Shown: in pieces, positions 2,528 through 28,456 of the stretch
Numbering within the stretch: the stretch's first letter is position 1
Layout of the letters: each line of letters opens with the position of its first letter
Assembly: GCA_049997875.1 (NCBI GenBank)
Contig: JBEKRC010000002.1
Location: 66,755 to 130,754 of the forward strand
DNA from: Minisyncoccia bacterium
GTDB taxonomy: Bacteria > Patescibacteriota > Minisyncoccia > UBA6257 > 2-01-FULL-56-20
Length of the DNA stretch: 64,000 nt
Direction: 5' to 3'
Program-made: the position numbers and the translations under genes
Notes under the pieces: generated by a model
What the model was told of the DNA's origin: nothing
Seen by the model: only the letters and a program-made list of their open reading frames with translations
Databases searched by the model: none

Positions 2528-2653
2528 ACAACAGTTTTTCTGCGGATTTTCTGTTTTTGATGGTAAATGATGGTAAAATGATGGGGAATGACTCCCGCGA
2601 GAAACGATGACAAAACGAGGAGCGTGTTTGATGTGCATACGGAGAAAGCCCGC

Positions 2654-5600
2654 ATGTCAAGACACTCGCTCAAAGAAATTATCTATGGCAGGAACGTTCT
2701 CAATTTGCGGCCTGGATTCGGGAAGCGCCACCCGTGGTGGTCGCTTGTAATCCTTCTTGTTCTGATCGGCGGCATTTTCTGGAGTATTCGGAAGCTTTCC
2801 ACTCGCGCAGAGGTGAGCGATTTTTTCCCGCTTACGTGTTTGGGCAGTTGGCAGAACCCGGCGAATGCCCAAGGGAAGCCCGAGAGCCTGGATGCTTCGT
2901 CCACGGCGATTACGGCAGACAATGCGAGCGTATATGACCCAATCTCGCCCTTGTCGCAGATCTTTTGCGGCGCGTTTGTGCCGCCCGATTATAAAACGGA
3001 AGGCGACATGAAAGGCGTCGGCTTGACGCTCGTATGGAATATCCCGGGATTCACGACGGCGACAGCGACAGCAGCAGAGGAGGGAACTGCCACGAGCACT
3101 GCCACTGGCACCGTTCCCACTGCGCCAACCACTACTACGCCAACCACCACCGCACCCGAAGCGACGAGCACTTCGTGGCTCTTTAATGCGCAACTCCTTA
3201 ATGTCGCGTTTGCGGATACAACGGACACAGTGAGCACGGTTCCGGCCTCAAGCGACACAGACATTGCGCCGCCCACTCCTCCGCCCGCGCCCACTCCTCC
3301 TCCGCCGCCATCCGAACCGACGACAACCGAGGCCACCGCCTCTACGACGCCGAGCGGCACCGTGATCATGGCACCGCCGGTCACGGCAACGCTCACTGCG
3401 ACCGGATCCGATGTTACTGCACCGCCCGCGGCGAGCGCCGCCACCTCCTCTGTGCCGGTCTTCGCTCCGCCGCCCCCGCCTGACGACAACTTCCTGAAAG
3501 TAAGTTACAGCTTGGATGGTCAGACGTGGATTGATCTTGCGACAGTGAATCAGGACAACTGGCAGAACTTCACAGCGACCCTTCCCGTGACGAGCTGGGA
3601 CGATCTCAAAAAGCTTCAGGTGAGGATTGAAGGGATTCCGACCGCGCTCACGCAGATCCCCAAAGTATATTTGGACGGGATGTTTGTTGAGGTGCACTAT
3701 GAGATCCCACCGGCATCGCCAATTTCGCTCGGCGGAAGTACTGCCGCAACGCCGTCCGCGGCGACCACCTCGGAAGTCATCGTCCTCCCGCCGACCCAAC
3801 AGCCAGTCCCTGTCAATCAGAATAGCGATTTCAAGGCAAACGAGTCGCCGACATTTGATTTCAACTTGAACGCGCTTCCCGGGCCGACTTCCACTACCGA
3901 GCCAGCACCGGCGCCCGCAGCTCCGGAAGTGGCTCCAACTTCCTCTCCTCCGGCTACGACCACGCCCTCCAGTACGAGCCTTTCTCGTCCACCTTCTCCA
4001 TTGTCTTTTTTTTTCCGGGCTGCGGATTTTTTCCGGACCGTAGGGAAAGCGGCAGCGCACGCCATTGGGCTTGATCGTTGGTTCACTGCCTACGCGCAGT
4101 TATCTCCGAACCAGAGCCAGCTTCCCGACGCGAATAATCCGATCATCGCGCAAATCTTCGGACCCGACGGGAAACTGACAAACCTCCAGCCCGTGATCCT
4201 CGTCACGGGCGGCAACCTCCGCGTGATACTGCCAAACCAGGGCCGCGCATTCATGCCAGGCGGGTATCTTATGAAACTTTTGATTTGGCAGAATGGCGTG
4301 GCGTACCAGACGCAGAGCGATTTCAGCTGGGGCGTGCTCGCGGTGAATTTCAACAAGTCAATTTATAAGAAGGGGGATACCGCGAAGATCGGATTAGGAT
4401 TCCTTAATCCCACGGGGCATACGATCTGCGACGGCAATATTGCGATGGATATCTCCTCGCCGTCGGGAAAGATTTATCATTTTTCGACCGGCAACAAGAC
4501 AATCCTGCGGGGACCGCACTGCGCCATGCAATCATTTACGAATGATCCGGATTATTCAGCCACGCTCATTGCCGCCGAAACCGGAACCTACAACGTGGCT
4601 ATCGCGGCGCAGGATCCCTCAACGGGAGACGCGATGAAGGCGAGCGACAGTTTTGAGGCGCAAACCGATCCGCAGTTTGACGTGGAGCGCGCGGAGGCGA
4701 CCAGGATCTATCCGCCGATGACCTATCGGGCGACGATCAAAATCATTCCGAACGCGGATTACGCGGGGCCGGTGACCGAAACCGTGCCGAGCGGATTCAC
4801 GGTGACAACCGATGTTCCCACGGATATGACGACGAGCGGCGACGATCAGACGATCACCTGGCAGGTTGTTTTTAAGAAGGGCATAGAATCGGATTTCGGA
4901 TATTCTTTCAAGGCGCCGGATGCAAGCCCGGAACTTTATAAATTGGGGCCGCTTACGATCGGCAGCTGGCAGGAGTCGCGGCAGTGGCAGATCGCGGCCG
5001 ACGCGATAGCGAAGACGAAAGTTTTTATCATCAGTACCGCTTCCACGACGTGGAAGGTGCCGAATGATTGGGACAATGCGAGCAATACGATTGAGGCCAT
5101 AGGAGCGGGAGGAGGAGGAACGGCGGGTACCAATTCAAACAGAGGAGGCGCAGGAGGAGGCGGAGGTGCGTATGCAGAAATAATCAACAAAACACTCACT
5201 ATCGGTGCCAGCACCACCATTCAAGTCGGTTTAGGGGCTACGGCGGCAAGCGGAACGGACACCTTTTTCGGAAGCTCAACCTGCGCAACGTCTTTCGTTT
5301 GTGCTAAAGGTGGGCAGGCAACAACTACGAAAACGAGTTATGGTCTTGGCGGGGCGAGTTCTACGAGCGTAGGAAGCACCACCTATCCGGGTGGCAACGG
5401 TGGCCCGGGCAACTCAAGTTATGGAAGCTACGGTGGTGGCGGTGGTGGTGCGGGAGGGAAGAGCGGGGCGGGAAGCGCAGGACTCGGGACTGCCACAAGC
5501 ACGGGCGGAAATGCTGACCTCAACAACGTGACAGGAGGGGCCATCAACACTGCCGGGAATACCGGCACGGAATGGGATTCAACTCACGGTTCGGGAAGTG

Positions 5601-7294
5601 GGTCGGGAGGGCGGAACACTAGCGCCGCGGGAATTGCGGGAGTGGTCTATGGCGGAGGCGGAGGCGGCGGGTATGGAACGACGGGAGGCAGCGCGGGAGG
5701 AAACGGTATAATCGTCATCACCTATCTCCCGCGCTATATCATCCTTGGTACTACTACCCAGCCATCGAACATTACGATAGGGCCGGGCGCGGCGGCGACG
5801 ACGAGCAATGCATTTACCTTTGCGACCGACGACGGCACAAGCACCATAACCAGCGTGAACGTCGGCCTTTCTACGACGACGGGCATTTTTCAAGTTCAGA
5901 TTACGAATAGTTCGGGGACCACGGTATACGGCTCAAGCACGAATCCCGGGTCTACTTCTTTGACCGTCACGACGACCGCCATGGGCGTTTCCACGACCGC
6001 CACCACGTTCCGCACGCTCATTCAGCCCTTGAGTTATCCGAATATGCCGGCACCGCCCGGTGGAACCTACGTGGTCACCTCCACCATTACGGGCTGGACG
6101 GACGTTAATACGCTGGATCAGACCAGTACGCCGATCACATCAAACACCCTTACGATAGACAATCAGCAGCCGGCGAACGTGACGAATGCGTCCGGCACGG
6201 CGACCAGCTCGCAAGTGACGTTTAGTTGGACAAATTCAACAAGCTCCGATTTCGCGACGACGACCGTTCTGCGGGCAACATCTTCCGTTGCCGTCGCGCC
6301 GACCAACGGGACAACCACCTACGTCAGCGAGGCCATCAATGCGACGACCACCGTCGCCTGCGTCGTCGCCTCAAGCACCGCGGGTTGCACGGATACGAGT
6401 CTCTCCACCACCACATATTATTATTACGAAATTTTTGCGGCAAATACCTATGCGAACTATTCTACGGGAGTCGTGCCGGCGGGGAATCCATTCCTACCGA
6501 GCGGGAATCGACCGCCGACCGTTTCAAAAGTCGTTCTCAACGGAAATGCGGCGATTGTTTTAAATCCTGGTGGCACGCAGACGGTTACGGCAGTCGCGTC
6601 GACAACCGACCCGGACGGAGCGGGTGATATCCGGTATGCCACATCAACCATTTATCTGTCGAGTGTTGGATCAAATTGCACGGCCAACAACCTGAACTGC
6701 TACCAGGTCCCGAGTTCGAGTTGCAGCTTCAGCAATTCCACGAGCACCGTGAGCTGTTCGGCAAACATCTATTACTTCGCGGACGCCACGGATGCGTCTT
6801 CAAGCTTCAATGGTCAGACGTGGAATGCCGCTATCACCGTTACTGACAGCGCGAGCAACACAAACACTTCCTCAACCGCAAGCGGGGTAACGCTGCAAAC
6901 GCTGCTCGCGATGAGCGTCGCGCCGACCAGCATCACTTACGGGACCTTGGCGCCGGCAGGGACGAGCGCGACGAACCTCACGACCACGGTTCAGAACGCA
7001 GGCAACTGCTCAACCACGCTCCAGTTGTCCGTGCTCGCGTCCCTTATGGGCGGCCATCCGACGACCACGCTTGTGACGAGTTCCCAGCAGTACGCGACGT
7101 CATCGGGCTTTACCTACGGCACGGGCTATGCCTTGAGCAGCACACCGGTCACGTTGAACGGCTTCACCCTTGCGGCGCCCGTCTCAACGACATCCGTGTC
7201 GGGTAATATTTTTTGGGGGCTGCGAGTTCCGACGGGTACTCCTACCGGTACCTACCTGGGCACAACTACCTTTTCTGCCCTTTATCATCTGTAA
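2654..7294 (+). CDS. Giant cell-surface protein (about 1547 aa): N-terminal signal-anchor, Thr/Pro-rich linkers, Gly-rich block, Thr/Ser-rich beta-rich C-terminal domains
   Basis: Start ATG 2654 (RBS GGAGAAAG); TM WWSLVILLVLIGGIFWSI; PTPPPAPTPPPPPSEP linkers; Gly-rich 5100-5720 (GAGGGGTAGTNSNRGGAGGGGGAYAE...YGGGGGGGYGTTGGSAGGNG); C-terminal 300 aa paralogous to next gene. Confidence 0.8.
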   Translation: MSRHSLKEIIYGRNVLNLRPGFGKRHPWWSLVILLVLIGGIFWSIRKLSTRAEVSDFFPLTCLGSWQNPANAQGKPESLDASSTAITADNASVYDPISPLSQIFCGAFVPPDYKTEGDMKGVGLTLVWNIPGFTTATATAAEEGTATSTATGTVPTAPTTTTPTTTAPEATSTSWLFNAQLLNVAFADTTDTVSTVPASSDTDIAPPTPPPAPTPPPPPSEPTTTEATASTTPSGTVIMAPPVTATLTATGSDVTAPPAASAATSSVPVFAPPPPPDDNFLKVSYSLDGQTWIDLATVNQDNWQNFTATLPVTSWDDLKKLQVRIEGIPTALTQIPKVYLDGMFVEVHYEIPPASPISLGGSTAATPSAATTSEVIVLPPTQQPVPVNQNSDFKANESPTFDFNLNALPGPTSTTEPAPAPAAPEVAPTSSPPATTTPSSTSLSRPPSPLSFFFRAADFFRTVGKAAAHAIGLDRWFTAYAQLSPNQSQLPDANNPIIAQIFGPDGKLTNLQPVILVTGGNLRVILPNQGRAFMPGGYLMKLLIWQNGVAYQTQSDFSWGVLAVNFNKSIYKKGDTAKIGLGFLNPTGHTICDGNIAMDISSPSGKIYHFSTGNKTILRGPHCAMQSFTNDPDYSATLIAAETGTYNVAIAAQDPSTGDAMKASDSFEAQTDPQFDVERAEATRIYPPMTYRATIKIIPNADYAGPVTETVPSGFTVTTDVPTDMTTSGDDQTITWQVVFKKGIESDFGYSFKAPDASPELYKLGPLTIGSWQESRQWQIAADAIAKTKVFIISTASTTWKVPNDWDNASNTIEAIGAGGGGTAGTNSNRGGAGGGGGAYAEIINKTLTIGASTTIQVGLGATAASGTDTFFGSSTCATSFVCAKGGQATTTKTSYGLGGASSTSVGSTTYPGGNGGPGNSSYGSYGGGGGGAGGKSGAGSAGLGTATSTGGNADLNNVTGGAINTAGNTGTEWDSTHGSGSGSGGRNTSAAGIAGVVYGGGGGGGYGTTGGSAGGNGIIVITYLPRYIILGTTTQPSNITIGPGAAATTSNAFTFATDDGTSTITSVNVGLSTTTGIFQVQITNSSGTTVYGSSTNPGSTSLTVTTTAMGVSTTATTFRTLIQPLSYPNMPAPPGGTYVVTSTITGWTDVNTLDQTSTPITSNTLTIDNQQPANVTNASGTATSSQVTFSWTNSTSSDFATTTVLRATSSVAVAPTNGTTTYVSEAINATTTVACVVASSTAGCTDTSLSTTTYYYYEIFAANTYANYSTGVVPAGNPFLPSGNRPPTVSKVVLNGNAAIVLNPGGTQTVTAVASTTDPDGAGDIRYATSTIYLSSVGSNCTANNLNCYQVPSSSCSFSNSTSTVSCSANIYYFADATDASSSFNGQTWNAAITVTDSASNTNTSSTASGVTLQTLLAMSVAPTSITYGTLAPAGTSATNLTTTVQNAGNCSTTLQLSVLASLMGGHPTTTLVTSSQQYATSSGFTYGTGYALSSTPVTLNGFTLAAPVSTTSVSGNIFWGLRVPTGTPTGTYLGTTTFSALYHL
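7064..7162. repeat. 99-bp segment nearly identical (1 mismatch) to 8061-8159, shared by the two tandem paralogs
   Basis: accacgcttgtgacgagttcccagcagtacgcgacgtcatcgggctttacctacggcacgggctatgccttgagcagcac[a/g]ccggtcacgttgaacggc. Confidence 0.85.
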
Positions 7295-7346
7295 TAGTTA
7301 TCCACAGGTAAGAAACATCCATTTTGCTATAATAATACTAAGCTGG

Positions 7347-8291
7347 ATGGATAAAAAGCTTATACAGATTTTGGTCGTTACTGCCCTTGCCACAGCCGCT
7401 TTTTTGTTGGTCGCCCAAACCGTTTTCGGTACTGCGACGACTACCAGTGTTACGAGTAGTGCGACCGTGACGACCACGGCGCCCATTGTTTCCTTCGTTT
7501 CAGGCCCGAATGGAGGTACGGCTATCAGCCTTAACGCCAATACGACAACGCCGATCTCCGTCGCCGTCACGGTCACCGATTATAACGGCTGCACGGATTT
7601 TAATAACAGCACCGAGACCATAGCGTTGTTCCGCGGCGATATCGCATCCTCGTCGTGCCTCACGAGCAGCACGCCGAACCCGCTCTTTTGCTATGTGGCC
7701 AGCGCATTTTCAACATCGACTTGCCCCGGCGGCTTTACCGCAAACGCCACCACAACGTTCTCCATGTACTATTTCGCCTCGCCGACCGACAACGCCTCCT
7801 ATACCTATAATGGAAAGGGTTGGCAAGGGGCTATAACAGTCACAAATCCCGCCAAACTCAGCGTCAGCACCACCTCTGCGACGACTACGCTGAACAGTCT
7901 TGAGGCGATCAGCTCAACGCCAAGCTCCATAGCCTATGGAACGCTCGCGCCGGCACAAGTCAACAGTCCTTCCGTAACCACGACGATTTCAGACGTCGGC
8001 AACACTTCAACGACGTTCCAGTTTTCGGCTACGCAATCTCTCACGGGCGGCGTGCCGACAACCACGCTTGTGACGAGTTCCCAGCAGTACGCGACGTCAT
8101 CGGGCTTTACCTACGGCACGGGCTATGCCTTGAGCAGCACGCCGGTCACGTTGAACGGCGTGTCAATCGCCGCTCCCATAAGTACCACTACGGTTTCCAC
8201 CAATATATTTTGGCTGTTGCAGGTCCCTACCGGAACGCCGACGGGAACATACAACGGCACCAACCTTTTCACGGGCCAATCGGTAAACTAG
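7347..8291 (+). CDS. Secreted Thr/Ser-rich surface protein, paralog of the C-terminal region of the giant protein
   Basis: Start MDKKLIQILVVTALATAAFLLVA (signal peptide) at ATG 7347; C-terminus TTTLVTSSQQYATSSGFTYGTGYALSSTPVTLNG... matches the giant protein C-terminus. Confidence 0.75.
   Translation: MDKKLIQILVVTALATAAFLLVAQTVFGTATTTSVTSSATVTTTAPIVSFVSGPNGGTAISLNANTTTPISVAVTVTDYNGCTDFNNSTETIALFRGDIASSSCLTSSTPNPLFCYVASAFSTSTCPGGFTANATTTFSMYYFASPTDNASYTYNGKGWQGAITVTNPAKLSVSTTSATTTLNSLEAISSTPSSIAYGTLAPAQVNSPSVTTTISDVGNTSTTFQFSATQSLTGGVPTTTLVTSSQQYATSSGFTYGTGYALSSTPVTLNGVSIAAPISTTTVSTNIFWLLQVPTGTPTGTYNGTNLFTGQSVN
8061..8159. repeat. Second copy of the 99-bp inter-paralog identical segment
   Basis: See 7064-7162. 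Confidence 0.85.
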
Positions 8292-8357
8292 GGACTTAGC
8301 GGTTTTTTTCTCTCGCTCGGCCATTCCTCCGAACGTCTTTCGTTTTGCGCGCAGGGG

Positions 8358-9320
8358 ATGAATATGCTACCATATACCCATAACGGTATGAAGCATTCTT
8401 TCCGAAAGTTTAGCCGTTTGTTTTTCATTGCCTTCGCATTCGCCGCAATATTGTTGCTGGGAAGCGCAGAAAGGAGCCTTGCGGCGTTCGGCATTTCGCC
8501 TCCCTTCATCAACGCTGACCACCTTGTGCCCGGCGTCACCTATTCGCAGACGGTCTACCTCGTGCAAGATCAGCCCGATCAAAATCTTGAAATCAGAGCG
8601 GCGTTAAGCGTGCCCGACCACATCAAGCCATGGATAAGTTTCGATACGGGAAATGATTTTATCATACCGCAGGGCACGCGCCAGTTCCCGGTACAGATCA
8701 CCATCACGGTACCGAAGGGGGAATCGCTCGGAAAGTACACGGGGAACGTGAGTTTCCAAAGCGTTCCAGGAAAAACGGGGCAAGTGACGATAGCCCTTGG
8801 GGTGAACGTATCCCTCAGCCTTACGGTTGGCAACGATATTTATGAAAAATATTCCGTCCCCCTGATCGCATTTCCGGATATTGAGGAAGGATGGAATCCG
8901 AAGGTGGCGGTGCGTTTTGAGAATGATGGCAACATACCCGAATCGTTTGACGCTGCGACGTTCGATCTTTACGATGAGTATGATGCTGTCCGCCTTGCGT
9001 TTGCGGAAAAGCAAAGCGGATTTCCAATAACACCGCCGTTCGTGACGAGCAATTACGTCATTGAATTCCCTACAAGCTTTCATTTGGGAGTAGGCGATTA
9101 CTGGGCAGTGGTGAATTTTTATAAAGATAACCAGGCGGTCGCCAGCCAGAAAACCGTGTTCCATGTCCTCCCTGCGGGATCGCTTTCGCCCACTGGATTG
9201 CTCCTCTCTTCTTTAAAAACCTACTGGTACTACTACCTCGTCGGCCTCATTGTACTTTTGCTCATCGGACGTCGGTTGTGGATATTCCGGCTGCGTAAAA
9301 AAAGAGCGGTGGTTGAGTAA
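8358..9320 (+). CDS. Secreted protein with N-terminal signal peptide and C-terminal TM anchor plus basic tail (Ig-like/beta-sandwich surface protein)
   Basis: FFIAFAFAAILLLGSAERSLAAFGISPP signal; C-terminus YWYYYLVGLIVLLLIGRRLWIFRLRKKR. Confidence 0.6.
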   Translation: MNMLPYTHNGMKHSFRKFSRLFFIAFAFAAILLLGSAERSLAAFGISPPFINADHLVPGVTYSQTVYLVQDQPDQNLEIRAALSVPDHIKPWISFDTGNDFIIPQGTRQFPVQITITVPKGESLGKYTGNVSFQSVPGKTGQVTIALGVNVSLSLTVGNDIYEKYSVPLIAFPDIEEGWNPKVAVRFENDGNIPESFDAATFDLYDEYDAVRLAFAEKQSGFPITPPFVTSNYVIEFPTSFHLGVGDYWAVVNFYKDNQAVASQKTVFHVLPAGSLSPTGLLLSSLKTYWYYYLVGLIVLLLIGRRLWIFRLRKKRAVVE

Positions 9321-9338
9321 TGCCATACCATCGCGATC

Positions 9339-10532
9339 ATGACGCCGCGCCGCGACTATTATATCCTTGCGATCGTCGGCGTATGTTTCATAATCCTACC
9401 CGCATCTGCGGCCGTGCTCCCAACCTCGGTGTCCGTCGTGATAGTAGTGGTGCCCAATGCGCCTTCTGATCTCACCGCCGTTTCAACTGCCCCGACCCAA
9501 GTGGCGCTTACGTGGACCGATAACTCCGGTAATGAGGATGGATTTAGCGTTGAACGCAAAACGGGAGCGGGTGGAACCTATGCGCAAATCGGAATAACGG
9601 GGACTGGCATAGCGACCTATGCGGATAACTCCGTAACTCCGGCAACCACCTATTTTTACCGCACAAGGGCCTTTGCCGGATCCAATTATTCCCCCTATAG
9701 CAATGAGGCGAGCGTGACTACCGCCTACGGTGTCAGCGGTAGTGGCGGGGGGGGAGGAGGCGGCGGCGGCGGTGGAGGGGGAGGATATTATTCTCCTCCG
9801 CCGGTATTTCAGACGTCAGCGATTTTTCGGGGAATAGCATATCCATTGAGCAGCATTAAGCTTCTTGAAAATGGACAGACGGTTGCCGTGACGCAATCGG
9901 GGCCTGACGCAAAGTTTGAAATTGACCTCTCAAACATCACTCCGGGAACCTACAATTTCGGTGTCTTGGCAAAGGATCCGCAAGGCGGCCACTCGATCGT
10001 TCAGACGTTCTCTGTCACCCTTACGTACGGCGCGTCGACCATCGTGAGCGGCATTTTTTTCCCACCTACCATCAGCGCGGATAAAGTACAGGTGAAGCGC
10101 GGCGACGTGCTTACGCTTCTGGGTTATACCGCGCCTACAGCGACTGTCGCCGTCGTTATTCATTCTGCGAATGAGATTATGAAAAACGTCACTTCCGCCG
10201 ACAGTGGGGCGTGGGTATACGCCGTGAATACCGATCCATTGGATTACGGCAATCACACGGCGCACGCTTGGGCGGCGGCGGGCGGCGCCGTGACCCCGGA
10301 CTCGGACATTCTTGCGTTTACGGTAGGCGATACTAATATTGCCGCGCCGCCGACGCAAACTTGCGCGTTCGTGGGGGATTTGAACGGGGATTGCAAGGTC
10401 AACCTCATTGATTTTTCGATTATGGCGTATTGGTATGGCAGGCCGAATCCGCCGGCAGGCGTTGACTTGAACCACGACGGGACCATCACTCTCGTTGACT
10501 TCAGTATTCTCATGTATTATTGGACCGGCTAA
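9339..10532 (+). CDS. Secreted FN3-domain protein with poly-Gly linker and C-terminal dockerin module
   Basis: FN3: PSDLTAVSTAPTQVALTWTDNSGNEDGFSVERK...TTYFYRTRAF; dockerin duplicated Ca-binding segments GDLNGDCKVNLIDFSIMAYWYG and VDLNHDGTITLVDFSILMYYW at the C-terminus. Confidence 0.8.
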   Translation: MTPRRDYYILAIVGVCFIILPASAAVLPTSVSVVIVVVPNAPSDLTAVSTAPTQVALTWTDNSGNEDGFSVERKTGAGGTYAQIGITGTGIATYADNSVTPATTYFYRTRAFAGSNYSPYSNEASVTTAYGVSGSGGGGGGGGGGGGGGYYSPPPVFQTSAIFRGIAYPLSSIKLLENGQTVAVTQSGPDAKFEIDLSNITPGTYNFGVLAKDPQGGHSIVQTFSVTLTYGASTIVSGIFFPPTISADKVQVKRGDVLTLLGYTAPTATVAVVIHSANEIMKNVTSADSGAWVYAVNTDPLDYGNHTAHAWAAAGGAVTPDSDILAFTVGDTNIAAPPTQTCAFVGDLNGDCKVNLIDFSIMAYWYGRPNPPAGVDLNHDGTITLVDFSILMYYWTG

Positions 10533-10533
10533 T

Positions 10534-11433
10534 ATGAAGCGATCTCTTTTCATCCTCGGATTCGTCGGTATGCTTTTTCTCCCTTGGCGGTCGTTTGCTT
10601 CGGTTATGACCGTGCGGCCATCTCCGGGGAATCCCTTGGCGATCATGGTCCACCTTAATACGGAAGGGGAAAATGTGAATGCCTTGGAAGCCCATTTCAC
10701 ATTTGATACCAATGCCTTTTCGGTGAGCAGCATAAGCGATGGCGGCTCCATCGTGAACCTTTGGGTAGAGACGCCAATCTTCTCAAACACTTCTGGTACC
10801 GTAGACTTTGCCGGCATCATTCCGGGAGGGGAAAGCACGGCGGACGGGACCATTATTACCATCATGATTGTTCCCAAAGAAGCCAACGCGACTACGAGCT
10901 TCACGCTCGTTTCGGCGCAGGCCCTTTTGAATGACGGACAAGGGACGCGGGCGTTGCTTTCCGTCATTAGTAATCCGTTCCCGCTGCTTACAGGAACCGC
11001 CGTATCGTCAACCATCGATACGCAAGCGCCGGACCCGTTCACGCCGGAGATCGGCCAAGAGCAAAATATTTTCAACGGGCAATATTTTTTGGCGTTCTCT
11101 ACGACCGATCAACGGTCGGGCATCGATCATTATGAAGTTCTTGAAATGCAAGCGGGCATGAAGATCGGGGCATCGTCCTCCTGGCAGGTTGCCGCTTCGC
11201 CGTACCTTTTGAAGGATCAGACGCTCTCAAGCGATATCTATGTTCGCGCCGTTGATAGGGCCGGAAATTTTCGAATAGCTGAAGTCCCGGCTGAGCATCC
11301 GGAATTGAAGGCCCGGGTCGCGCGGGGCGGCGCCGAAACACTCTTTGGGTCCATAGTGTTATTATTAGTCATAGGAATCATATTTTGGATTTGGAAATGG
11401 AGAAGAAAAAAACTATCGCGAGATTCCGGATAA
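10534..11433 (+). CDS. Cohesin-domain protein with Ig-like domain and C-terminal TM anchor (scaffoldin-like anchor protein 1)
   Basis: Signal peptide MKRSLFILGFVGMLFLPWRSFA; cohesin-like segment VMTVRPSPGNPLAIMVHLNTEGENVNALEAHFTFDTNAFSVSSISDGGSIVNLW...DGTIITIMIVPKEANATTSFTLVSAQALLNDGQGT; SGIDHYE...RAVDRAGNF Ig-like motif; C-terminal TM IVLLLVIGIIFWIWKWRRKK. Confidence 0.75.
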   Translation: MKRSLFILGFVGMLFLPWRSFASVMTVRPSPGNPLAIMVHLNTEGENVNALEAHFTFDTNAFSVSSISDGGSIVNLWVETPIFSNTSGTVDFAGIIPGGESTADGTIITIMIVPKEANATTSFTLVSAQALLNDGQGTRALLSVISNPFPLLTGTAVSSTIDTQAPDPFTPEIGQEQNIFNGQYFLAFSTTDQRSGIDHYEVLEMQAGMKIGASSSWQVAASPYLLKDQTLSSDIYVRAVDRAGNFRIAEVPAEHPELKARVARGGAETLFGSIVLLLVIGIIFWIWKWRRKKLSRDSG

Positions 11434-12839
11434 TCGTGAGCGCGCTTGCGGCGCTTGCAGGGCTTTTTGGCGCCCGAAACGCACATGCCGCAACGCTTTT
11501 CTTTTCGCCGCAATCGGGAACATATTTTACGGGACGCAGTTTTACCGTTGCCGTCAAGGTTTCCTCGCCCGACCAGGCGATGAGTGCCGCGCAAGGTGAA
11601 ATTTCCTTTCCGACAAAAAATCTTGCGGTACTTTCGGTATCAAAGACAGATTCCATTATGAATCTTTGGGTCCAGGACCCTACGTTCTCAAATCATGACG
11701 GCGTAATTAATTTCGGAGGCGTGGCGGTGAACCCCGGTTTCAAGGGAACCGATGGGACGATCTTCACGGTGACTTTTGAGGCGGAAAGTCCTGGTAGCGC
11801 CCCGTTATCATTTATCTCGGGGTCAGTTCTTGCGAACGACGGGAAAGGAACCAATATTTTGAGCGGCATGCAGAGCGCAAATTTCAGCGTCATTCCTCTT
11901 GCCGCCATGCCCGCGAATGCTTCAGCGCCGGCCGTTCTCATCATCTCCAATCCGCCCCTTGCCGACGGGAATTGGTATAACCTTGATCACATTACGTTCG
12001 ACTGGAGCGTTCCCTCGAATGCCGAAGGGGTCGATTATACGATATCGACCAATGCCAACTTCCAACTTCCCGATGTAAATCTGGGTTTTGTTTCACAGGT
12101 GACCTATGATCTCTCGAATTTTTCAGATGGTACGTGGTATTTCTTTGTAAGTTTCAAAAGCGGCAATTCCTGGTCGCCGCCAGCCGTGAAAATAATCATG
12201 CTTGACCGGACGCCGCCTCGCCCGTTCGTCATTACGCGCGAGGATACGGACGAAACGGACGCGCAGCCCGTTTTCCAATGGGTAGCGGCCGACGACGTGT
12301 CTGGCATTGATCATTATGAAGCTAGGATCGGCAATGGCGATTGGTTCAACCCCGCCAGCCTCGAAAGCACTGCCGCTTCTTACGTTTTGCCGCCGCAGTC
12401 GCCGACCGACGTGCGGACGTTCACCGTCCGCGCGTTTGATAGGGCAGGGAATTTCACTGACTCCTCAATTGACTTCCGCGTGTTTCCTCCGGCCGTGCTT
12501 TGTAAGGGTGATGGTCTCTCATGCAGGCTTTTGGCGCTCGCCGTGCGATGGGAATGGCTGATCATTCTCATCTTTATTCTTCTTGTTTTCGGCACGTATG
12601 GATTTATTTATCGTCTCCTGCGGTGGAGGAAGCAATCAAGGAAAGAGTTACAAGAATTCAAAGATGAATTGCAGCGCGATCTGAAGCGGGTAGAAGAAAA
12701 GGCCCGAGAGGCCGGCGGCGGCGAGACCGATCTCAGGCAATCCCATCTTCTGGAAGAGAAGCGTTCGCTCGAAAGGCAAATTCGCCACATTGTGGAGGAC
12801 GTGAAGGAAGAACTCAAGCGCCTTACGGACAAAAAATGA
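11397..12839 (+). CDS. Cohesin-domain protein 2 with two Ig-like domains, TM helix and cytoplasmic coiled-coil tail (scaffoldin-like anchor protein 2)
   Basis: Signal peptide; cohesin-like ATLFFSPQSGTYFTGRSFTVAVKVSSPDQAMSAAQGEISFPTKNLAVLSVSKTDSIMNLWV...DGTIFTVTFEAESPGSAPLSFISGSVLANDGKGT; SGIDHYEARI...RAFDRAGNF; TM WLIILIFILLVFGTYGFIY then KQSRKELQEFKDELQRDLKRVEEK. Confidence 0.75.
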   Translation: MEKKKTIARFRIIVSALAALAGLFGARNAHAATLFFSPQSGTYFTGRSFTVAVKVSSPDQAMSAAQGEISFPTKNLAVLSVSKTDSIMNLWVQDPTFSNHDGVINFGGVAVNPGFKGTDGTIFTVTFEAESPGSAPLSFISGSVLANDGKGTNILSGMQSANFSVIPLAAMPANASAPAVLIISNPPLADGNWYNLDHITFDWSVPSNAEGVDYTISTNANFQLPDVNLGFVSQVTYDLSNFSDGTWYFFVSFKSGNSWSPPAVKIIMLDRTPPRPFVITREDTDETDAQPVFQWVAADDVSGIDHYEARIGNGDWFNPASLESTAASYVLPPQSPTDVRTFTVRAFDRAGNFTDSSIDFRVFPPAVLCKGDGLSCRLLALAVRWEWLIILIFILLVFGTYGFIYRLLRWRKQSRKELQEFKDELQRDLKRVEEKAREAGGGETDLRQSHLLEEKRSLERQIRHIVEDVKEELKRLTDKK

Positions 12840-12861
12840 GCCGTCAGGTATAATAATACGT

Positions 12862-13356
12862 ATGGCATTCATTTCGACGACTTTCCTTATTACGGTTGCG
12901 CTGTCGGTGATTGCCCTTCTGCTCGTGTTCATTACCTATGAGCTTTGGAAAAATAATCGTCTCAATGCGAAAAGGATAGATAGCGCGATGAAAGAAGGAC
13001 CGGGTGGCCCGATCGATCTTCGTAAGAAAGAGCTCGGCGTGCTTGATAGCAAGGGAACATATTCTTACGATTCCGTCGTAATGGACGAGGTCTTGGGGGG
13101 AAAGATCATTGAAGGGTTGAAGGAGGCGCTCCGTATAACCGAGGGAACGTATAAAAAGCTTTCCGAAAAATTCAAAGACGATCGCGAAAAGCGCATAGAG
13201 CTTGCGAACGACTGGCTAAATTATTTGGAAGCGCTGGACAACATCAAACAATCCCGGATCGATTACCGCATGAGCAGCAGCGAGATAGAGGGGGAAAGCG
13301 AAAGAATTAAGCTCGAGGTAGAGAATAAATTCAAGAACCTGCTTGAAGCGCCCTAG
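12862..13356 (+). CDS. Membrane-anchored hypothetical protein (164 aa)
   Basis: N-terminal TM FLITVALSVIALLLVFITY, charged helical remainder. Confidence 0.5.
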   Translation: MAFISTTFLITVALSVIALLLVFITYELWKNNRLNAKRIDSAMKEGPGGPIDLRKKELGVLDSKGTYSYDSVVMDEVLGGKIIEGLKEALRITEGTYKKLSEKFKDDREKRIELANDWLNYLEALDNIKQSRIDYRMSSSEIEGESERIKLEVENKFKNLLEAP

Positions 13357-14197
13357 CTCGCTCGCCTTCGTTCTGGATTTTCGCAAGCACGAGATGCGTT
13401 CCGGACAGTTTTGCTTCAAGCAGTTTTGTCCGTTTGGCGTTCTTCATCGTCCAGCACCCTGGCTCGGGATTAAGCGCGCGGATTTTCCGTATGATTATTT
13501 CGGCTTGCTCCGCGTCGCCCGCGAGCGCTTTATCGAGATTTGCTCCGTCCACAAAGCCATCCTGCGTTGTGAATTTTTTAGTGTAGGTCGCTTGCGCCTC
13601 GTCCTGCGCATGCGGTTTCAATTTTCCCGCCATAAGGCCTGGCAGCGTTTCGAGAAGAAGTTCCGCGGAGCGCTGCGCCAATCGCTCCTCAAGTTCCGGA
13701 TAGTTTATTTCCAAACTATCTATAGGTATCTTTGCACTTGCAAGAACCGACCCGCGGTCCATCTTCTCGTCCATTTGGTAAATCGTGACGCCGGTTTCGC
13801 GCTCGCCGTTCAAAATGGCCGACTGGATGGGGGTGGCGCCGCGGTATTTGGGCAGGAGCGAGGGATGGACGCCGATCGTGCCAAGACGGGGAAGGTCAAG
13901 CACGGATTTTGGAATGATCTTCGCGTAAGCCGCGACCACAAAACAATCTGCGCCCAACGCCGTGAGTTCCCTGATAGAATATTCATCCAGGTTTTCGGGC
14001 TGGAAAATTTTTATGCGGGGAGCTTCCGCGCCGCGCGAGAGCACAAGCCGCTTTGTCAGCGGGGGAGTGACGATCTTTTTCCGTCCGGTCGGCCGGTCAG
14101 GATTGCATACGAGGGCCGCGGGCGGCATGTCCGCGCGGAGGAGGCGCTCAAGAATGATTTCCGCAAAGCGCGGCGTTCCGAAGAAAATGTATTTCAT
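13331..14197 (-). CDS. fmt: Methionyl-tRNA formyltransferase
   Basis: MKYIFFGTPRFAEIILERLL...GTIGVHPSLLPKYRGATPIQSAILNGERETGVTIYQMDEKMDRG. Confidence 0.9.
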   Translation of the reverse strand: MKYIFFGTPRFAEIILERLLRADMPPAALVCNPDRPTGRKKIVTPPLTKRLVLSRGAEAPRIKIFQPENLDEYSIRELTALGADCFVVAAYAKIIPKSVLDLPRLGTIGVHPSLLPKYRGATPIQSAILNGERETGVTIYQMDEKMDRGSVLASAKIPIDSLEINYPELEERLAQRSAELLLETLPGLMAGKLKPHAQDEAQATYTKKFTTQDGFVDGANLDKALAGDAEQAEIIIRKIRALNPEPGCWTMKNAKRTKLLEAKLSGTHLVLAKIQNEGERARALQAGS

Positions 14198-15019: not shown

Positions 15020-15604
15020 ATGCGCCACCGGCTTTTCATTGCCGTAAATATCACCGACGCTGCGCGGCGAGAGGTAAGAAAACTATCCGAAGAGGCGGAG
15101 AAGAAATTCGCGCCCGACCTTCTTCGCCAGATCCGGCTTGTACCGTCTGCGAACTGGCATCTCACCATGTCATTTTTGGGCTACGAGGACGACGCCGAAT
15201 TCCCCAAAATCATGCGCGCCGCGGGAGCCGCCGCAAAGCGATTTCCGGCACAGGAAATTATCTTTGATACCGTAACGTACGGCCCGCCGCGCGGGAGCGC
15301 AAAGAGGATGTTGTGGCTCGGCGCGGCAGAGGAGAGCTCACAAAAACTTTCCACCATAAAGGAGTTTCTTGAAGACCGGTTGGTCGCGGAACAGGTGCCG
15401 TTTATGAGGGAAACGAGACCGTTCGGCGGCCACATCACTCTCGCGCGATTTAACGGCGAGATGCGTGGCGCAACGCTCCCGCCCCTAGGGCGTTCACCCC
15501 GCATTTGCGTTCCCGTGGAAAGCTTGGACCTTATGGAATCCACGCTTCGCCGCGAGGGCGCCGAATATGCCATCCTCCAGAAATTTCCGTTTTCAAAAAT
15601 GTGA
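15020..15604 (+). CDS. thpR: RNA 2',3'-cyclic phosphodiesterase / 2'-5' RNA ligase (2H phosphoesterase)
   Basis: Two H-x-T-x motifs: NWHLTMSFLG and GGHITLARF; start at MRHRLFIAVNI. Confidence 0.8.
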   Translation: MRHRLFIAVNITDAARREVRKLSEEAEKKFAPDLLRQIRLVPSANWHLTMSFLGYEDDAEFPKIMRAAGAAAKRFPAQEIIFDTVTYGPPRGSAKRMLWLGAAEESSQKLSTIKEFLEDRLVAEQVPFMRETRPFGGHITLARFNGEMRGATLPPLGRSPRICVPVESLDLMESTLRREGAEYAILQKFPFSKM

Positions 15605-15620
15605 TATAATCCAGGGTACT

Positions 15621-16874
15621 ATGCGTGTCATCGGTAAAAAAGCATTGGAAATAGGGATTACCGTCATCGTAGGCCTTGCGCTCCTTGGGAGCGGTTTTTT
15701 CCTCGGCTGGAGTGCGGAGAAAAGAATTCCGCAGCCGGCCGTCGTCACGACCGGCGCGAGCGATCTCACGCCGCCGTCATCCACGGGCATGAGCGCTGCC
15801 GACTTCAGCTTGTTCTGGCAGGCGTGGCAGACCATCAATGATAATTATCTTCGGAACGGGAGCACAACCAACGAGGACAAACTGTACGGCGCGGTGAACG
15901 GTCTCGTGAATTCGCTGAACGATCCATATTCGGAATTTTTCACGCCGCAAAGCAACCAGCAGTTCCAGGAGAACATCACGGGCGACTTTGGGGGCATCGG
16001 CGCGCAGCTCGGCACGGACACAGACGGCCACATCGTGGTGGTGGCGCCGCTCAAGGGCACGCCGGCGGAGAAGGCGGGGCTGAAACCGAAGGATTGGATC
16101 GTCGCAGTTGACGCGACGTCCACGAGCGGCATGACGGTGGATGATGCCGTGAACTTGATCCGCGGGCCGGAAGGAACCACCGTCACCTTAAGCATATTGC
16201 GGGCGGACTGGAGCGCGCCGAAAGATTTCAAGATAACGCGGACGAACATTCAGGTTCCGAACGTGGAATTTGAAATGAAAGGCAATATCGCTCACGTCAC
16301 GTTGAGCGAGTTCACCGAGGACGCCGACTTCCTTTTTTACCAAGCGCTTGTTGAAGCGCTCGCCAAGAACGCAAAGGGGATCGTACTTGATCTCCGCGAC
16401 GATCCTGGCGGGTATCTTGAGGTCGCGGTTGACATCGCGGGATATTTCCTGAAGCCCGGTTCGCTCGTGGTGAAAGAAGTGGGCCGCGCGGTGCCGGAGC
16501 AGGATTACACGGCGCAGGGCGACGGCACGCTCTCAAATTTCCCGATCGCCGTGCTTATCAATGACGGTTCGGCGTCCGCGGCGGAGATCCTTGCAGGCGC
16601 GCTTCACGACGACCGGCATGTGCCGCTCGTGGGAGAAACGAGCTTCGGGAAGGGAACCGTACAGGAACTTGAGCCGCTCCCCGACGGTTCCGCGATCAAG
16701 CTCACGGTGGCCCATTGGGTGCTGCCTTCGGGAAAGATCATTGACCACGAGGGCATCGCGCCGGATTACGCCGTAGCGCGTTCCGACGACGATATCGCGA
16801 ACGGCCGCGATCCCCAGCTTGATAAAGCCGTGCAGATACTCCAGGCAGAGACCGCAAATCAAAATCCCCAATGA
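15621..16874 (+). CDS. Carboxyl-terminal processing protease (S41, PDZ domain)
   Basis: [30 protein letters not shown], catalytic [20 protein letters not shown]. Confidence 0.85.
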
Positions 16875-18618: not shown

Positions 18619-18644
18619 GGAAAACCCGCGTTATGCGGGTTTCC
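18619..18644 (-). terminator. Rho-independent terminator hairpin overlapping stop codon of 18631-19527 gene
   Basis: AAACCCGC-gttat-GCGGGTTT; minus strand followed by UUUAUUUUGAGG. Confidence 0.6.
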
Positions 18645-19527
18645 TTTGCTGATGCTGCTGTTGCGAGGGTTGCGGTTGTTGCGGGGGTTGGGGTGGTTTT
18701 CCGGTGGATACGCCGAGGGGTGTCGCTATGGCACTGGTTGCGATTGGCGCCGACGGTGATCCCACTGGCTTTGCGATGCTCGTAAGCGTGATGGCGGGTG
18801 CGGGGAGAGGCATGCTTTTCTCTTTCGTTTCTTCCTCTTCGTTTTCACCACTTGGCCAAAAAAGCCACGCAAGCACTGCGACGACCACAAGTGCGATTAC
18901 GCCGATGAGCGGCCAGTTTAAGTTCCAAAGCGACCAGGTCGTTCCCACCTGTGCGGTCTGCGGTGCCGCGCTTTCGGGATTCGTAGCCCCCGACGTTTGC
19001 GGCATCACTTGGGTGGACGTTTCCGGTGCGGGAACGGATGCTTGTACCTGTACTTGCGGAACAGGCGCGGCGGCTACGGCGGATGGTGACGAAACCGCGA
19101 GTGGAGCGGCGCTCGGATTCCCCGCGAGCGTTGCCCCAATCATTGCGAGCGTGGTGCCCACATCCTTCAACGTGGAGATGATGGCCCCTTCATGGCCTGC
19201 GATGATTTGTGGATTGCTCGCCAGGCTTGATTGAAGGCCCGTGAGCGCCGTAGAGAGCACGGAAAGCACATTCACAAGCGATGCAGCGTCTTCCGGCGTA
19301 AGCGACGATCCGAGGACGGCAGGCACCGGAGTTGGTGCGCCCGTCTGCGCGGCGGCCTGGGCCTGGAGCTCAAGCAATTCCGCCTTCATCGTAGTAAGCG
19401 ATTGTTGCAGTACGGCCGCCTGCGTTGGTGTGAGCGTATCATCGGCATGTGCGGCAACCGGACGCAATATTCCTCCAAAGCTCGCGATTGCAACCACGAA
19501 AAACAAAGTAATAAATAATTTTTTCAT
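18631..19527 (-). CDS. Secreted Ala/Pro/Gln-rich protein with C-terminal TM helix
   Basis: Signal MKKLFITLFFVVAIASFGG; TM WPLIGVIALVVVAVLAWLFW; PQPPQQPQPSQQQHQQ tail. Confidence 0.5.
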   Translation of the reverse strand: MKKLFITLFFVVAIASFGGILRPVAAHADDTLTPTQAAVLQQSLTTMKAELLELQAQAAAQTGAPTPVPAVLGSSLTPEDAASLVNVLSVLSTALTGLQSSLASNPQIIAGHEGAIISTLKDVGTTLAMIGATLAGNPSAAPLAVSSPSAVAAAPVPQVQVQASVPAPETSTQVMPQTSGATNPESAAPQTAQVGTTWSLWNLNWPLIGVIALVVVAVLAWLFWPSGENEEEETKEKSMPLPAPAITLTSIAKPVGSPSAPIATSAIATPLGVSTGKPPQPPQQPQPSQQQHQQRKPA

Positions 19528-25671: not shown

Positions 25672-26289
25672 CTACTTGTAGGTAGTCCCCAAATATGACA
25701 GGGGATCAAGGTCATGGCCGGTCGGATCCGGACCGCAGCCGTTGCGCGGGGTCATGGAAAATCCATTCTCGTCAAAAATGGAGAAGTGAAGATGAGTGCC
25801 GGTTTCAAAGCCAGTTGCGCCCACAGAGCCGATCAGAGTGCCTTTTTTGACCACGCTACCGGGCGAGACGGAGATCGTACCGAGGTGCGCGAACCAGAGT
25901 ATAAGGTGGTTCACCGCGTCGTCTACGGCCACATATTTTCCAAAGCCGCGCTGCGGACAGTAATCGTCCTGGTTGCCGGTCGCGAGCACCGTTCCTCCGC
26001 CAGGGGAGTAGATCGGCGCACCGTAGGCGGCTGCGATATCAATGCCATCGTGCCATCCGTTCGGATACTCGTACGAAAACGACGTATGACCGTATCCCTG
26101 CGTAATATAACTTCTGCCACTACCGTTCTTGTCAAACAAACCGAAATCGATGGAGGTAAGCTGGTTTGCGCTGCTACCGGATTGATACGCGCGCACCAAC
26201 CCGCCCGAGGCAAAAAAATTTCCTATCGCGACGATGACCGTGAGCGCACAAAATATTGCGAGCGCCCCAACAATGATTTTCCCCGTCAT
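25672..26289 (-). CDS. Peptidase M23 (LytM domain) with N-terminal TM
   Basis: GWHDGIDIAAAYGAPIYSPGGGTV...GTHLHFSIF. Confidence 0.85.
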   Translation of the reverse strand: MTGKIIVGALAIFCALTVIVAIGNFFASGGLVRAYQSGSSANQLTSIDFGLFDKNGSGRSYITQGYGHTSFSYEYPNGWHDGIDIAAAYGAPIYSPGGGTVLATGNQDDYCPQRGFGKYVAVDDAVNHLILWFAHLGTISVSPGSVVKKGTLIGSVGATGFETGTHLHFSIFDENGFSMTPRNGCGPDPTGHDLDPLSYLGTTYK

Positions 26290-27153: not shown

Positions 27154-28455
27154 TTAGAACAAATATCCAATAGGGTTCAGATCGCCGCCGTAGGGCATCG
27201 GCCCGCAAACCTTTGATGGTCCCATGTAGAACGTCGCTTGAGCATAGACCGTGAAGTGCAGGTGCGGGCCGGTTGCATAACCCGTCTGGCCGGAATAGCC
27301 GATTATCTGTCCCCTCTTTACCGTGTCGCCCTTTGCGGCGATGATCCGCGAGAGGTGGCCGTAGAGTGTCGTGAGGTTGTTCGTGTGGTTGATAACCACA
27401 AATTTTCCGTATGCCCCTTTGTAGCAGTAAGTATCCTGGTTGCCGGTGGCGGCCACAACGCCATCCTCGGCCGCGAGGACCGGCGTTCCGATGGATGCGG
27501 CAAGGTCAATGCCGTTGTGCCAGTGCCCCGCGTAGCCGTTTTTGGCGAATGCGGTCGCGCCGTATCCTTGCGTGATGTCCGATTCGTCGTCGCCCTGGAT
27601 CGGCACGAGGAGCACCCCTGGCGCGAGCGCGGGCAGCGTGGAGGGGTCAATCTTTGTGCGCAGCACCGCGGCGATCGCCTCCATGTCGCTTGCGATCGCC
27701 GCCTGTTCTTTTTGAAGCGCCGTCACTTGCTCCTGGAACACGCTCTCCTGATTCTTGGTTGATTTCAAGAGGGTTTGCTTTTGCGTTTGTTGGTCCTGGA
27801 CGATCACTTTCTTGTTCTGGAGGTCTTCTTGGTGCGCCGTGACCTGGTCGGATTTCGCCGTACTGTCCCCAATCTTCGCAGCATATTCCGTGTTGAGTTC
27901 CTTGAGCGCATCAATGTCGGTCGCGAGCTCCGCACGGAGATTCAAAAGCGAATTCGCTTCCAGGACGCCGTCCGCAAGCGTCCCGCTTTTGAGAAATAGC
28001 GCGAGAAGGTTTCCATTCTCGGAATCATTTCGCTCAACTTCTTGCAAGATGCTCGCGATAGCGTTTTGTTTCGTCGTCACGGATGCCTGAATGTCCTTCA
28101 TGTCGCTTTGGAGCTGGTCAATTTCCAAGGTGAGTTGTTGTGAGGTCAGCGCGTCGGCCTGGATGCCCAAATTCAGCGAATTAACGTTGCCGTTGATCAG
28201 GTTGAGCTGCTGCTGGAGCGTCACGCGCTGCGATTGTATCTGTTTCAGGCTCGCGGTGGTGGACGCAAGCTGGGCGTTCACGTCGTTCAATTGTTGCTGC
28301 TTTTGCTGGATCTGCGTCTGCAGGGTGGTCGCCGTCATCGGCGTAGTCGTGGAGGTTGGGGAAACGCTCTGGGCACGGGCTGTGATTGCTACGATTGCAC
28401 ATCCCGTGACGACCGCCGCGACGATTTGCGCGTAAAAATAAAAAAACGTTTTCAT
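27154..28455 (-). CDS. Peptidase M23 with N-terminal TM and long coiled coil (EnvC-like)
   Basis: Start MKTFFYFYAQIV at 28455 (1 nt after gltX stop); HWHNGIDLAASIGTPVLAAEDGVV...GPHLHFTVY; Gln-rich coiled coil. Confidence 0.85.
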   Translation of the reverse strand: MKTFFYFYAQIVAAVVTGCAIVAITARAQSVSPTSTTTPMTATTLQTQIQQKQQQLNDVNAQLASTTASLKQIQSQRVTLQQQLNLINGNVNSLNLGIQADALTSQQLTLEIDQLQSDMKDIQASVTTKQNAIASILQEVERNDSENGNLLALFLKSGTLADGVLEANSLLNLRAELATDIDALKELNTEYAAKIGDSTAKSDQVTAHQEDLQNKKVIVQDQQTQKQTLLKSTKNQESVFQEQVTALQKEQAAIASDMEAIAAVLRTKIDPSTLPALAPGVLLVPIQGDDESDITQGYGATAFAKNGYAGHWHNGIDLAASIGTPVLAAEDGVVAATGNQDTYCYKGAYGKFVVINHTNNLTTLYGHLSRIIAAKGDTVKRGQIIGYSGQTGYATGPHLHFTVYAQATFYMGPSKVCGPMPYGGDLNPIGYLF

Positions 28456-28456
28456 A

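Follow-up and report, generated by a model that had tools for sequence, protein, structure and literature searches.

A conserved six-gene locus for predicted surface proteins in a Minisyncoccia bacterium and a possible mode of non-covalent surface display

The question raised by the locus described here is whether six neighbouring genes for secreted and membrane-anchored proteins encode one surface system and, if so, how that system is held on the cell. The genes, g1 to g6, are consecutive on the plus strand at 2588-12839 of a 64,000-nucleotide stretch of Minisyncoccia bacterium DNA (contig JBEKRC010000002.1; this whole stretch is called the window below). The host, which is ultra-small and uncultured, belongs to the Patescibacteria of the candidate phyla radiation (CPR), a group that accounts for much of the diversity of bacteria and whose members are mostly thought to be attached to other cells; an attached lifestyle is typical of them, and to our knowledge their means of attachment, type IV pili apart, are almost wholly undescribed. 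Our preferred answer, to which we give a probability of roughly 0.55, is that the six proteins form one non-covalent surface-display complex with two anchoring subsystems, one built on dockerin and cohesin domains and the other on a C-terminal module common to g1 and g2, in a monoderm Patescibacterium that makes peptidoglycan.

Layout and conservation of the locus

The cluster is flanked by a gene for Fe/Mn superoxide dismutase (SOD, 1919-2527) and a convergent gene for methionyl-tRNA formyltransferase (fmt, 13331-14197, minus strand). It consists of g1 (2588-7294, 1568 aa), g2 (7347-8291, 314 aa), g3 (8388-9320, 310 aa), g4 (9339-10532, 397 aa), g5 (10534-11433, 299 aa) and g6 (11397-12839, 480 aa), all on the plus strand, and these calls agree exactly with the public gene models of this genome, which has been assembled independently three times. 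Translation of g1 could begin at the ATG at 2588 or at another at 2654, the latter giving a protein of 1546 aa. The annotated start of g3 is 8388, and an exact database look-up with the protein taken from 8358 returned no match. A preliminary description of this DNA had the six genes co-directional, each encoding a signal-peptide or signal-anchor protein, and separated by short gaps of 1-66 nt. The open reading frames (ORFs) and our hydropathy scan agree with the first two points, while the gaps hold only in part. The g1-g2 junction is 52 nt, the g3-g4 junction 18 nt and the g4-g5 junction 1 nt, all within that range, but g5 and g6 overlap by 37 nt and the g2-g3 junction is 96 nt when measured from the annotated start of g3 (66 nt from the start used in the preliminary description).

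Signal-peptide and transmembrane (TM) calls rest on a Kyte-Doolittle hydropathy scan, in which all six products open with a hydrophobic stretch and, behind it, a plausible cleavage site of the A-x-A type. For g3, g5 and g6 a TM helix near the C-terminus is predicted as well, with a basic tail after it. The public annotation of the cluster is limited to Gly_rich_2 and a weak Cohesin match, and the NCBI product name of both g2 and g3 is 'hypothetical protein [Minisyncoccia bacterium]'. Pfam and NCBIfam scans of g1-g6 found no catalytic, SLH, LysM or LPXTG domain. Elsewhere the window encodes M23 peptidases and, for peptidoglycan synthesis, a MurC-like ligase, MurG and FtsW, so there is a wall that a surface complex could cross or bind.

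To see how the locus is organized in relatives, one genome per GTDB species was scanned with two g3 peptide motifs, which gave 37 loci. All are from metagenome-assembled genomes (MAGs) of Patescibacteria, including Liptonbacteria, Jorgensenbacteria, Paceibacterota and Parcubacteria; several third-party annotation (TPA) MAGs are labelled 'Candidatus Saccharibacteria', a label that is unconfirmed. Gene order was counted by tblastn, blastp and ORF mapping, using as denominators the loci with enough sequence. A gene carrying the g1/g2 module lies immediately upstream of g3 in 34 of 35 loci, a gene ending in a dockerin lies immediately downstream of g3 in 35 of 36 (the sole exception, L003, has a frameshifted dockerin), and further downstream 32 of 33 loci have two or more cohesin/TM genes. 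A module-bearing protein of at least 900 aa is encoded upstream of g3 in 21/28 loci, and relatives have one to three small paralogs. The order is kept down to 37-43% g3 identity (L033-L036), and it is intact in four loci (L005, L007, L010 and L017) where the SOD gene is found between two cohesin genes rather than upstream of g1. The same gene order, contiguous rather than scattered, was found in essentially every relative retrieved, and since it recurs across 37 genomes, far beyond chance, the earlier proposal of a dedicated locus in place of scattered surface genes is borne out.

Two neighbours were also looked at. The gene following g6, g7 (12862-13356), was considered as a cluster member and rejected, as a homolog was found in 0 of the 37 loci. 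Many genomes have the gene for the cytoplasmic-type Fe/Mn SOD next to g1, on its upstream side, or between the cohesin genes, for which either collinearity or co-expression could account.

Dockerin, cohesin and shared-module proteins

In g4 a signal peptide precedes an FN3 domain (9459-9716), a poly-Gly linker and two Big_6/Big_13-like immunoglobulin-like (Ig-like) domains, and the protein ends in a type I dockerin (10374-10517). The g5 protein begins with a signal peptide and a cohesin (~10603-10953); next come an Ig-like domain (SGIDHYE...DRAGN) and a TM helix (~11323-11403), and its basic tail is short. In g6 the signal peptide and the cohesin (~11529-11837) are followed by Ig-like domains and, at ~12549-12623, by a TM helix, beyond which lies a cytoplasmic coiled-coil tail ~70 aa long. 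This tail is conserved, with DUF6377-like matches in the window and in L032. The dockerin, cohesin and FN3 assignments had been proposed from the letters alone, and against Pfam they stand for Dockerin_1 in g4 (28.6 bits, cutoff 22.9) and Cohesin in g5 (28.8 bits, cutoff 24.1), whereas fn3 in g4 (23.2 bits, cutoff 25) and Cohesin in g6 (23.6 bits, cutoff 24.1) fall just under. The g6 orthologs in L032 and L005 reach 38.9 and 36.0 bits for Cohesin, and g6 is paralogous to g5 over both the cohesin and the membrane-proximal Ig-like domain (E=7e-17 and 3e-6). Dockerin_1 in relatives scored 28.3 and 29.1 bits, with one at 19.5.

The g4 dockerin has two intact DxNxDxxxxxxD calcium loops, DLNGDCKVNLID and DLNHDGTITLVD, and is the only dockerin within the 64-kb window. 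Both loops are kept in at least 25 relatives, always at the extreme C-terminus, and the cargo upstream of them varies, being FN3 and Ig domains in the window and an unrelated beta-rich domain in L032. A further arrangement, which hints at a natural domain swap between the two halves of the cluster, is seen in a Liptonbacteria MAG (L034:10977-11849), in which an Ig domain with the conserved Cys residues, resembling the N-domain of g2, is followed by a poly-Gly linker and a dockerin. This Ig module matches g1 residues 1319-1419 with E=1e-7. As the same Ig module can be joined either to the C-domain of g1 and g2 or to a dockerin, the comparison suggests that the two may be interchangeable anchoring devices of one system.

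The first gene of the cluster encodes what had been described as a giant Thr/Pro/Gly-rich protein. Its composition is as stated, and Gly_rich_2 is its sole solid Pfam domain. From the N-terminus, g1 has a cytoplasmic tail, a TM or signal segment, a conserved Cys-containing N-domain, Thr/Pro-rich linkers, a conserved mid region, the Gly_rich_2 domain, an FN3-like Thr-rich region and the C-terminal module in common with g2. The Gly_rich_2 domain (PF21722; 5042-5725, plus strand, residues 797-1024 of the 1546-aa form) scores 37.5 bits in the whole protein and 43.8 bits as a segment, covering profile positions 5-225 of 226, and among the PHROG families this Gly-rich domain weakly matches minor tail proteins of phages. 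At the N-terminus (2654-3060 in the window), all g1 orthologs have a cytoplasmic V-x-N-L-[RK]-P motif followed by the TM segment and then by a nearly invariant TRAEVxDFYPxTCLGxWQNPxNAQGxPE ... IFCGxF domain. The TM segment may be cleaved after TRA or retained as an anchor, a choice that matters for the topology of g1.

The C-terminal two-domain module of g1 (6503-7291, plus strand) is paralogous to mature g2. It has an Ig-like N-domain with conserved Cys residues and a C-domain ending in FWxLxVPxGTPTGTYxGT. Over g1 residues 1296-1541, g2 is 52% identical (E=8e-62), and the last ~80 residues are nearly identical, in agreement with the earlier view of g2 as a short paralog of g1. The 314-aa g2 protein (100% identical to the database match P0121) has a signal peptide and a short conserved N-terminal strand ahead of the same two domains. 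That strand, N(V/L)TSxV(I/V)VGN(A/S)xP, directly follows the predicted cleavage site in the small module proteins and is not present at the equivalent position of g1. A homolog search with g2 gave 13 matches and was swamped by Thr-rich words, and Foldseek with the g2 model returned only generic Ig matches with E above 1e-3. Neither g2 nor g3 has a Pfam match.

Between the module genes and the dockerin gene lies g3, whose product had been called an Ig-like protein with a C-terminal TM anchor. It has a signal peptide, tandem PapD-like/E-set (CARDB-like) beta-sandwiches, a TM helix (~9231-9293) and a basic tail, and the AlphaFold2 (AF2) model built from 26 sequences (predicted local distance difference test score (pLDDT) 87) shows the two beta-sandwiches and, at the C-terminal end, a long helix, as expected from that call. 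No other protein of the cluster is as well conserved as g3, with a median identity of 50.8% compared with 53.5% for fmt in the same loci, and a profile search found 1262 representatives (50% clustering) at E up to 1e-3 and 183 at E up to 1e-30. A tandem duplication of the module gene and g3 as a pair occurs inside one cluster (L010:1547-4803), which is consistent with the module protein and g3 working as a pair.

Foldseek of the g3 model listed two entries for WxLIP, a protein of Firmicutes WxL clusters: 9i25_C ('WxLIP ... bound to long WxL') with E=2e-8 and 9i1y with E=6e-8. According to the same match listing, PDB entry 9i25 is the structure of a WxLIP-WxL complex. Among 70 diverse members of the g3 family, five had a sub-threshold match to WxLIP_HBD (formerly DUF3324) over domain 2, with a best E of 3.5e-5; in the relative P0228, residues 143-252 match positions 14-120 of 138 with 21.7 bits against a cutoff of 28.9. 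Other matches in the family are of the GH123_N_2/ASH type for domain 1 and the CARDB type for domain 2. The g3 of the window had no match to WxLIP_HBD or DUF916, DUF916 was unmatched in the family members as well, and a PDB sequence search with the g3 profile gave nothing meaningful. Homology of g3 to WxLIP is plausible but unproven.

One g3 homolog is named by NCBI as an LPXTG/sortase-anchored protein, and this type of anchoring was rejected for g3, whose LPAGS motif is unconserved and, at ~20 residues ahead of the TM helix, too far from it. Outside the cluster, three proteins of 800-900 aa from unknown organisms (P0250, P0262 and P0267) carry a g3-type tandem Ig unit at the N-terminus, beginning with (A/G)FGISPP directly after the signal peptide and fused to long FG-GAP/VCBS-like repeat regions or to FN3-containing regions, so the unit looks like a reusable module beyond the cluster.

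A proposed display complex and its alternatives

In the complex that we propose, g5 and g6 would be type I membrane proteins held by their C-terminal TM helices, each exposing one cohesin, and secreted g4 would dock onto these cohesins by its C-terminal calcium-type dockerin. The membrane-tethered, PapD-like or WxLIP-like tandem Ig protein g3 would capture the C-terminal module of g2 and g1, probably via beta-strand insertion or complementation. Held on the cell in this way, g1 could present its Cys-containing N-domain and Gly-rich domain outward as an adhesin for a host cell or substrate. The gene set, its domains, the g1/g2 paralogy, the predicted topology, the g3 fold and the synteny come directly from the analyses above. 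The contacts between the proteins, this outward orientation and the adhesive role, like the adhesion or appendage function suggested in the preliminary description, are what we infer from several lines of evidence. For the first subsystem these are the matched dockerin and cohesin domains, the conserved set of one dockerin with at least two cohesins, and variable cargo on a constant dockerin. For the second they are the C-terminal module common to g1 and g2, the adjacency of module genes to g3, their co-duplication in L010, the sub-threshold WxLIP_HBD matches and the published logic of WxL clusters. The wall genes in the window and the absence of a catalytic domain in g1-g6 also agree with this reading.

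Several results weigh against it. The WxL profile of Pfam found no match in g1 or g2 (E up to 0.1) or in 58 module homologs (E up to 1), PDB sequence searches with g1 and with the g2 profile gave no meaningful match, and the g1/g2 module has two sub-domains with a single conserved W-x-[LI] motif. In the AF2 model of g2, built from a 12-sequence alignment, the Ig-like N-domain reaches a pLDDT of ~75 and the C-domain only ~33. The similarity of g3 to WxLIP amounts to TM-scores of 0.30-0.37, among other tandem-Ig or PapD-like matches that are no weaker, and all Pfam matches of the g3 family are under their gathering thresholds. General collinearity of small genomes inflates the synteny signal, fmt and SOD also being often conserved neighbours, and the loci were selected through g3 motifs, which biases g3 conservation upward. 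Lastly, we have no explanation for the gene ratio of one dockerin to two cohesins.

The alternative that survives best, though we consider it unlikely, is a donor-strand-type fibre in which g2 would polymerise head-to-tail via its conserved N-terminal strand, g1 would cap the tip and g3 would act as chaperone or base, with the cohesin and dockerin proteins tying this base to the membrane. It is favoured by the strand that follows the cleavage site in the small module proteins and is without a counterpart in g1, but the Ig domain may just begin with this strand. The N-terminal segment and whole C-domain of g2 are of low confidence in the monomer AF2 model, as an incomplete fold would be, but the small alignment is the simpler cause. 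Likewise, the PapD-like fold of g3 would suit such a role, although this fold is very common among non-chaperone proteins. The one to three small paralogs in relatives and a consensus -10 element ahead of g2 (described below) also point towards a fibre; against it, no usher or secretin-like partner is present, and polymerisation itself is conjecture. Taken further, the cluster could encode a new appendage of the Patescibacteria (Minisyncoccia/Paceibacteria), in which a strand-complemented g2 fibre with g1 at the tip and g3 at the base is clamped to the cell by g4, g5 and g6 and serves episymbionts as an organelle for holding the host, an idea that we regard as more doubtful again.

Similarly doubtful is a structural envelope or S-layer-type scaffold, in which g2, probably Thr-glycosylated, would form a lattice held by g3, g5 and g6 with a housekeeping function rather than that of an adhesin. 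The near-equal conservation of g3 and the housekeeping gene fmt, the large size of the g3 family, the position of the cluster among housekeeping genes and its Thr-rich proteins, which recall S-layer glycoproteins, would all suit such a scaffold. However, g3 conservation carries the retrieval bias noted above, the scans of g1-g6 gave neither SLH nor any other S-layer domain on record, g2 is small for an S-layer protein, and a giant g1 whose Gly-rich domain weakly resembles phage minor tail proteins, together with the variable cargo of g4, looks more like an interaction device.

Far less probable is a miniature cellulosome-like system, in which membrane cohesins would recruit dockerin-bearing enzymes for the binding or degradation of polysaccharides. 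Cohesin and dockerin are the defining modules of cellulosomes, and dockerin and FN3 proteins of a Saccharibacterium have been speculated to target host glycans (PMC10633639). But g1-g6 and the relatives tested gave no match to a glycoside hydrolase, a carbohydrate-binding module (CBM) or any further catalytic domain, each anchor has one cohesin with no multi-cohesin scaffoldin, and there is a single dockerin gene in 64 kb, and we rejected the identification as a cellulosome for want of enzymes in the cluster. Least probable of all is that these are unrelated surface proteins made neighbours by the collinearity of small Patescibacteria genomes, since, even though fmt and SOD are often conserved alongside, the six genes stay contiguous despite relocation of SOD in four loci and down to 37% g3 identity, they encode matched partner domains and a module common to g1 and g2, and the next gene, g7, is entirely unconserved.

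How the cluster is transcribed is less clear. The preliminary description suggested one or two transcription units, and since promoter and terminator scans of the cluster were no better than in shuffled sequence, this claim is unproven. An extended -10-like 11-mer, TATAATAATAC, is found at 7328-7338 on the plus strand, 8 nt upstream of the g2 ATG, and again at 12849-12859 on the plus strand, 2 nt upstream of the g7 start codon. These two occurrences in 64 kb compare with 0.23 expected, and the 11-mer was not found in the 37 related loci. From its letters, the copy before g2 could be a promoter internal to the cluster, and the spacing of the two copies suggests very short-leader or leaderless transcripts.

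Other genes of the window include one for a PDZ-containing, CtpA-like C-terminal processing protease of family S41 (15567-16874, plus strand) ~3 kb from the cluster and two for M23 peptidases (25672-26289 and 27154-28668, both minus strand) ~13-16 kb from it, enzymes of the kind that remodel the wall or process proteins. A gene resembling the large subunit of NiFe-hydrogenases lies at 41422-42717 on the minus strand (Pfam NiFeSe_Hases, E=2.6e-28). Four ORFs of 298-574 aa, at 30156-31880, 32385-33290, 18631-19527 and 40407-41366, all on the minus strand, have no Pfam match at E up to 1e-4.

Relation to known systems

Full-text literature on Patescibacteria, Parcubacteria or CPR with cohesin or dockerin yielded no description of this cluster. 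Its components are of known kinds, namely cohesin, dockerin, Ig-like folds and a WxL-like logic; what appears to be new is their combination, the anchoring by TM helices, the unclassified g1/g2 module and the taxon. The six-gene set spans many species-level lineages of one major class in which it is annotated essentially as 'hypothetical protein', and the proposed complex names concrete, testable partners, the dockerin with the cohesins and the common module with g3. If it is true, cohesin-dockerin pairs would serve in these bacteria as membrane anchors of a surface complex and not for enzyme assembly, and g1 would be a candidate host-recognition protein.

Among fibrous systems, sortase pili and LPXTG proteins differ in that neither a TM segment nor LPXTG is present at the C-terminus of g1, g2 or g4. 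Donor-strand fibres are known from monoderms and archaea, with TasA and the archaeal bundling pili or threads as examples. In sequence the cluster resembles neither pilins nor TasA, and any strand exchange here would be conjectural. With chaperone-usher pili the cluster has in common a PapD-like tandem Ig protein (g3) encoded next to small beta-rich subunits, and a large protein with a subunit-like C-terminal domain (g1) that follows the logic of a tip adhesin. Those pili, however, depend on an outer-membrane usher and a soluble chaperone, whereas there is no usher-like gene in or near the cluster and g3 is TM-anchored.

Cohesin and dockerin modules are said to be widespread outside cellulolytic bacteria. 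The likeness to known cohesin-dockerin anchoring lies in the two-repeat type I dockerin that ends the secreted g4, the adjoining cohesin anchor genes and the variable cargo. Cellulosomes differ in having multi-cohesin scaffoldins that are SLH- or sortase-anchored, as opposed to the single-cohesin, TM-held g5 and g6, and in carrying enzymes and CBMs, of which there are none here; the cluster also has one dockerin to two cohesins. Within the Patescibacteria, the closest case is SEML1_0315, a dockerin-domain envelope protein of the Saccharibacterium Southlakia epibionticum that is essential by transposon sequencing (Tn-seq) (PMC10633639). In architecture it resembles g4, as a secreted Patescibacterial protein that combines Ig/FN3/PapD-like domains with a dockerin, and epibiotic growth depends on it in large part. 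It comes from another class and is encoded by an isolated gene, between a hydrolase gene and a tRNA gene, outside any such six-gene cluster.

The nearest parallel to g1, g2 and g3 is the WxL (Csc) cluster of Lactobacillales, Listeria and Enterococcus. The minimal Firmicutes cluster encodes a small WxL protein (the domain behind a signal peptide), a large one in which adhesin domains precede a C-terminal WxL domain, and WxLIP, which has two Ig-like domains (DUF916 and DUF3324) and a C-terminal TM segment and is predicted to insert a beta-hairpin into WxL, holding WxL at the surface (PMC9772566, PMC10599100). In both systems a small protein is essentially the common domain only (g2), a large one has adhesin-like N-terminal domains ahead of that domain (g1), and a third of ~300 aa has a signal peptide, two Ig-like domains, a C-terminal TM segment and a basic tail (g3). 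The three genes are adjacent and co-directional in both, with a variable number of small paralogs, and anchoring would in our cluster likewise be non-covalent. The resemblance of the g3 model to the solved WxLIP structures 9i1y and 9i25 is limited to the low TM-scores given above, and that of a few g3 relatives to sub-threshold WxLIP_HBD matches. The differences are that every sequence test failed to place the g1/g2 module among WxL domains, which have two WxL motifs; that there is no DUF916 match or LPxTG protein here; that the hosts are Firmicutes rather than Patescibacteria; and that WxL clusters are without the cohesin-dockerin set, which is always joined to the cluster here. By this analogy, g1, g2 and g3 would work like a WxL cluster and follow its logic without being one, the domain itself being different. 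If this is true, the display logic of the Firmicutes WxL clusters would have a deep, sequence-divergent counterpart in the CPR.

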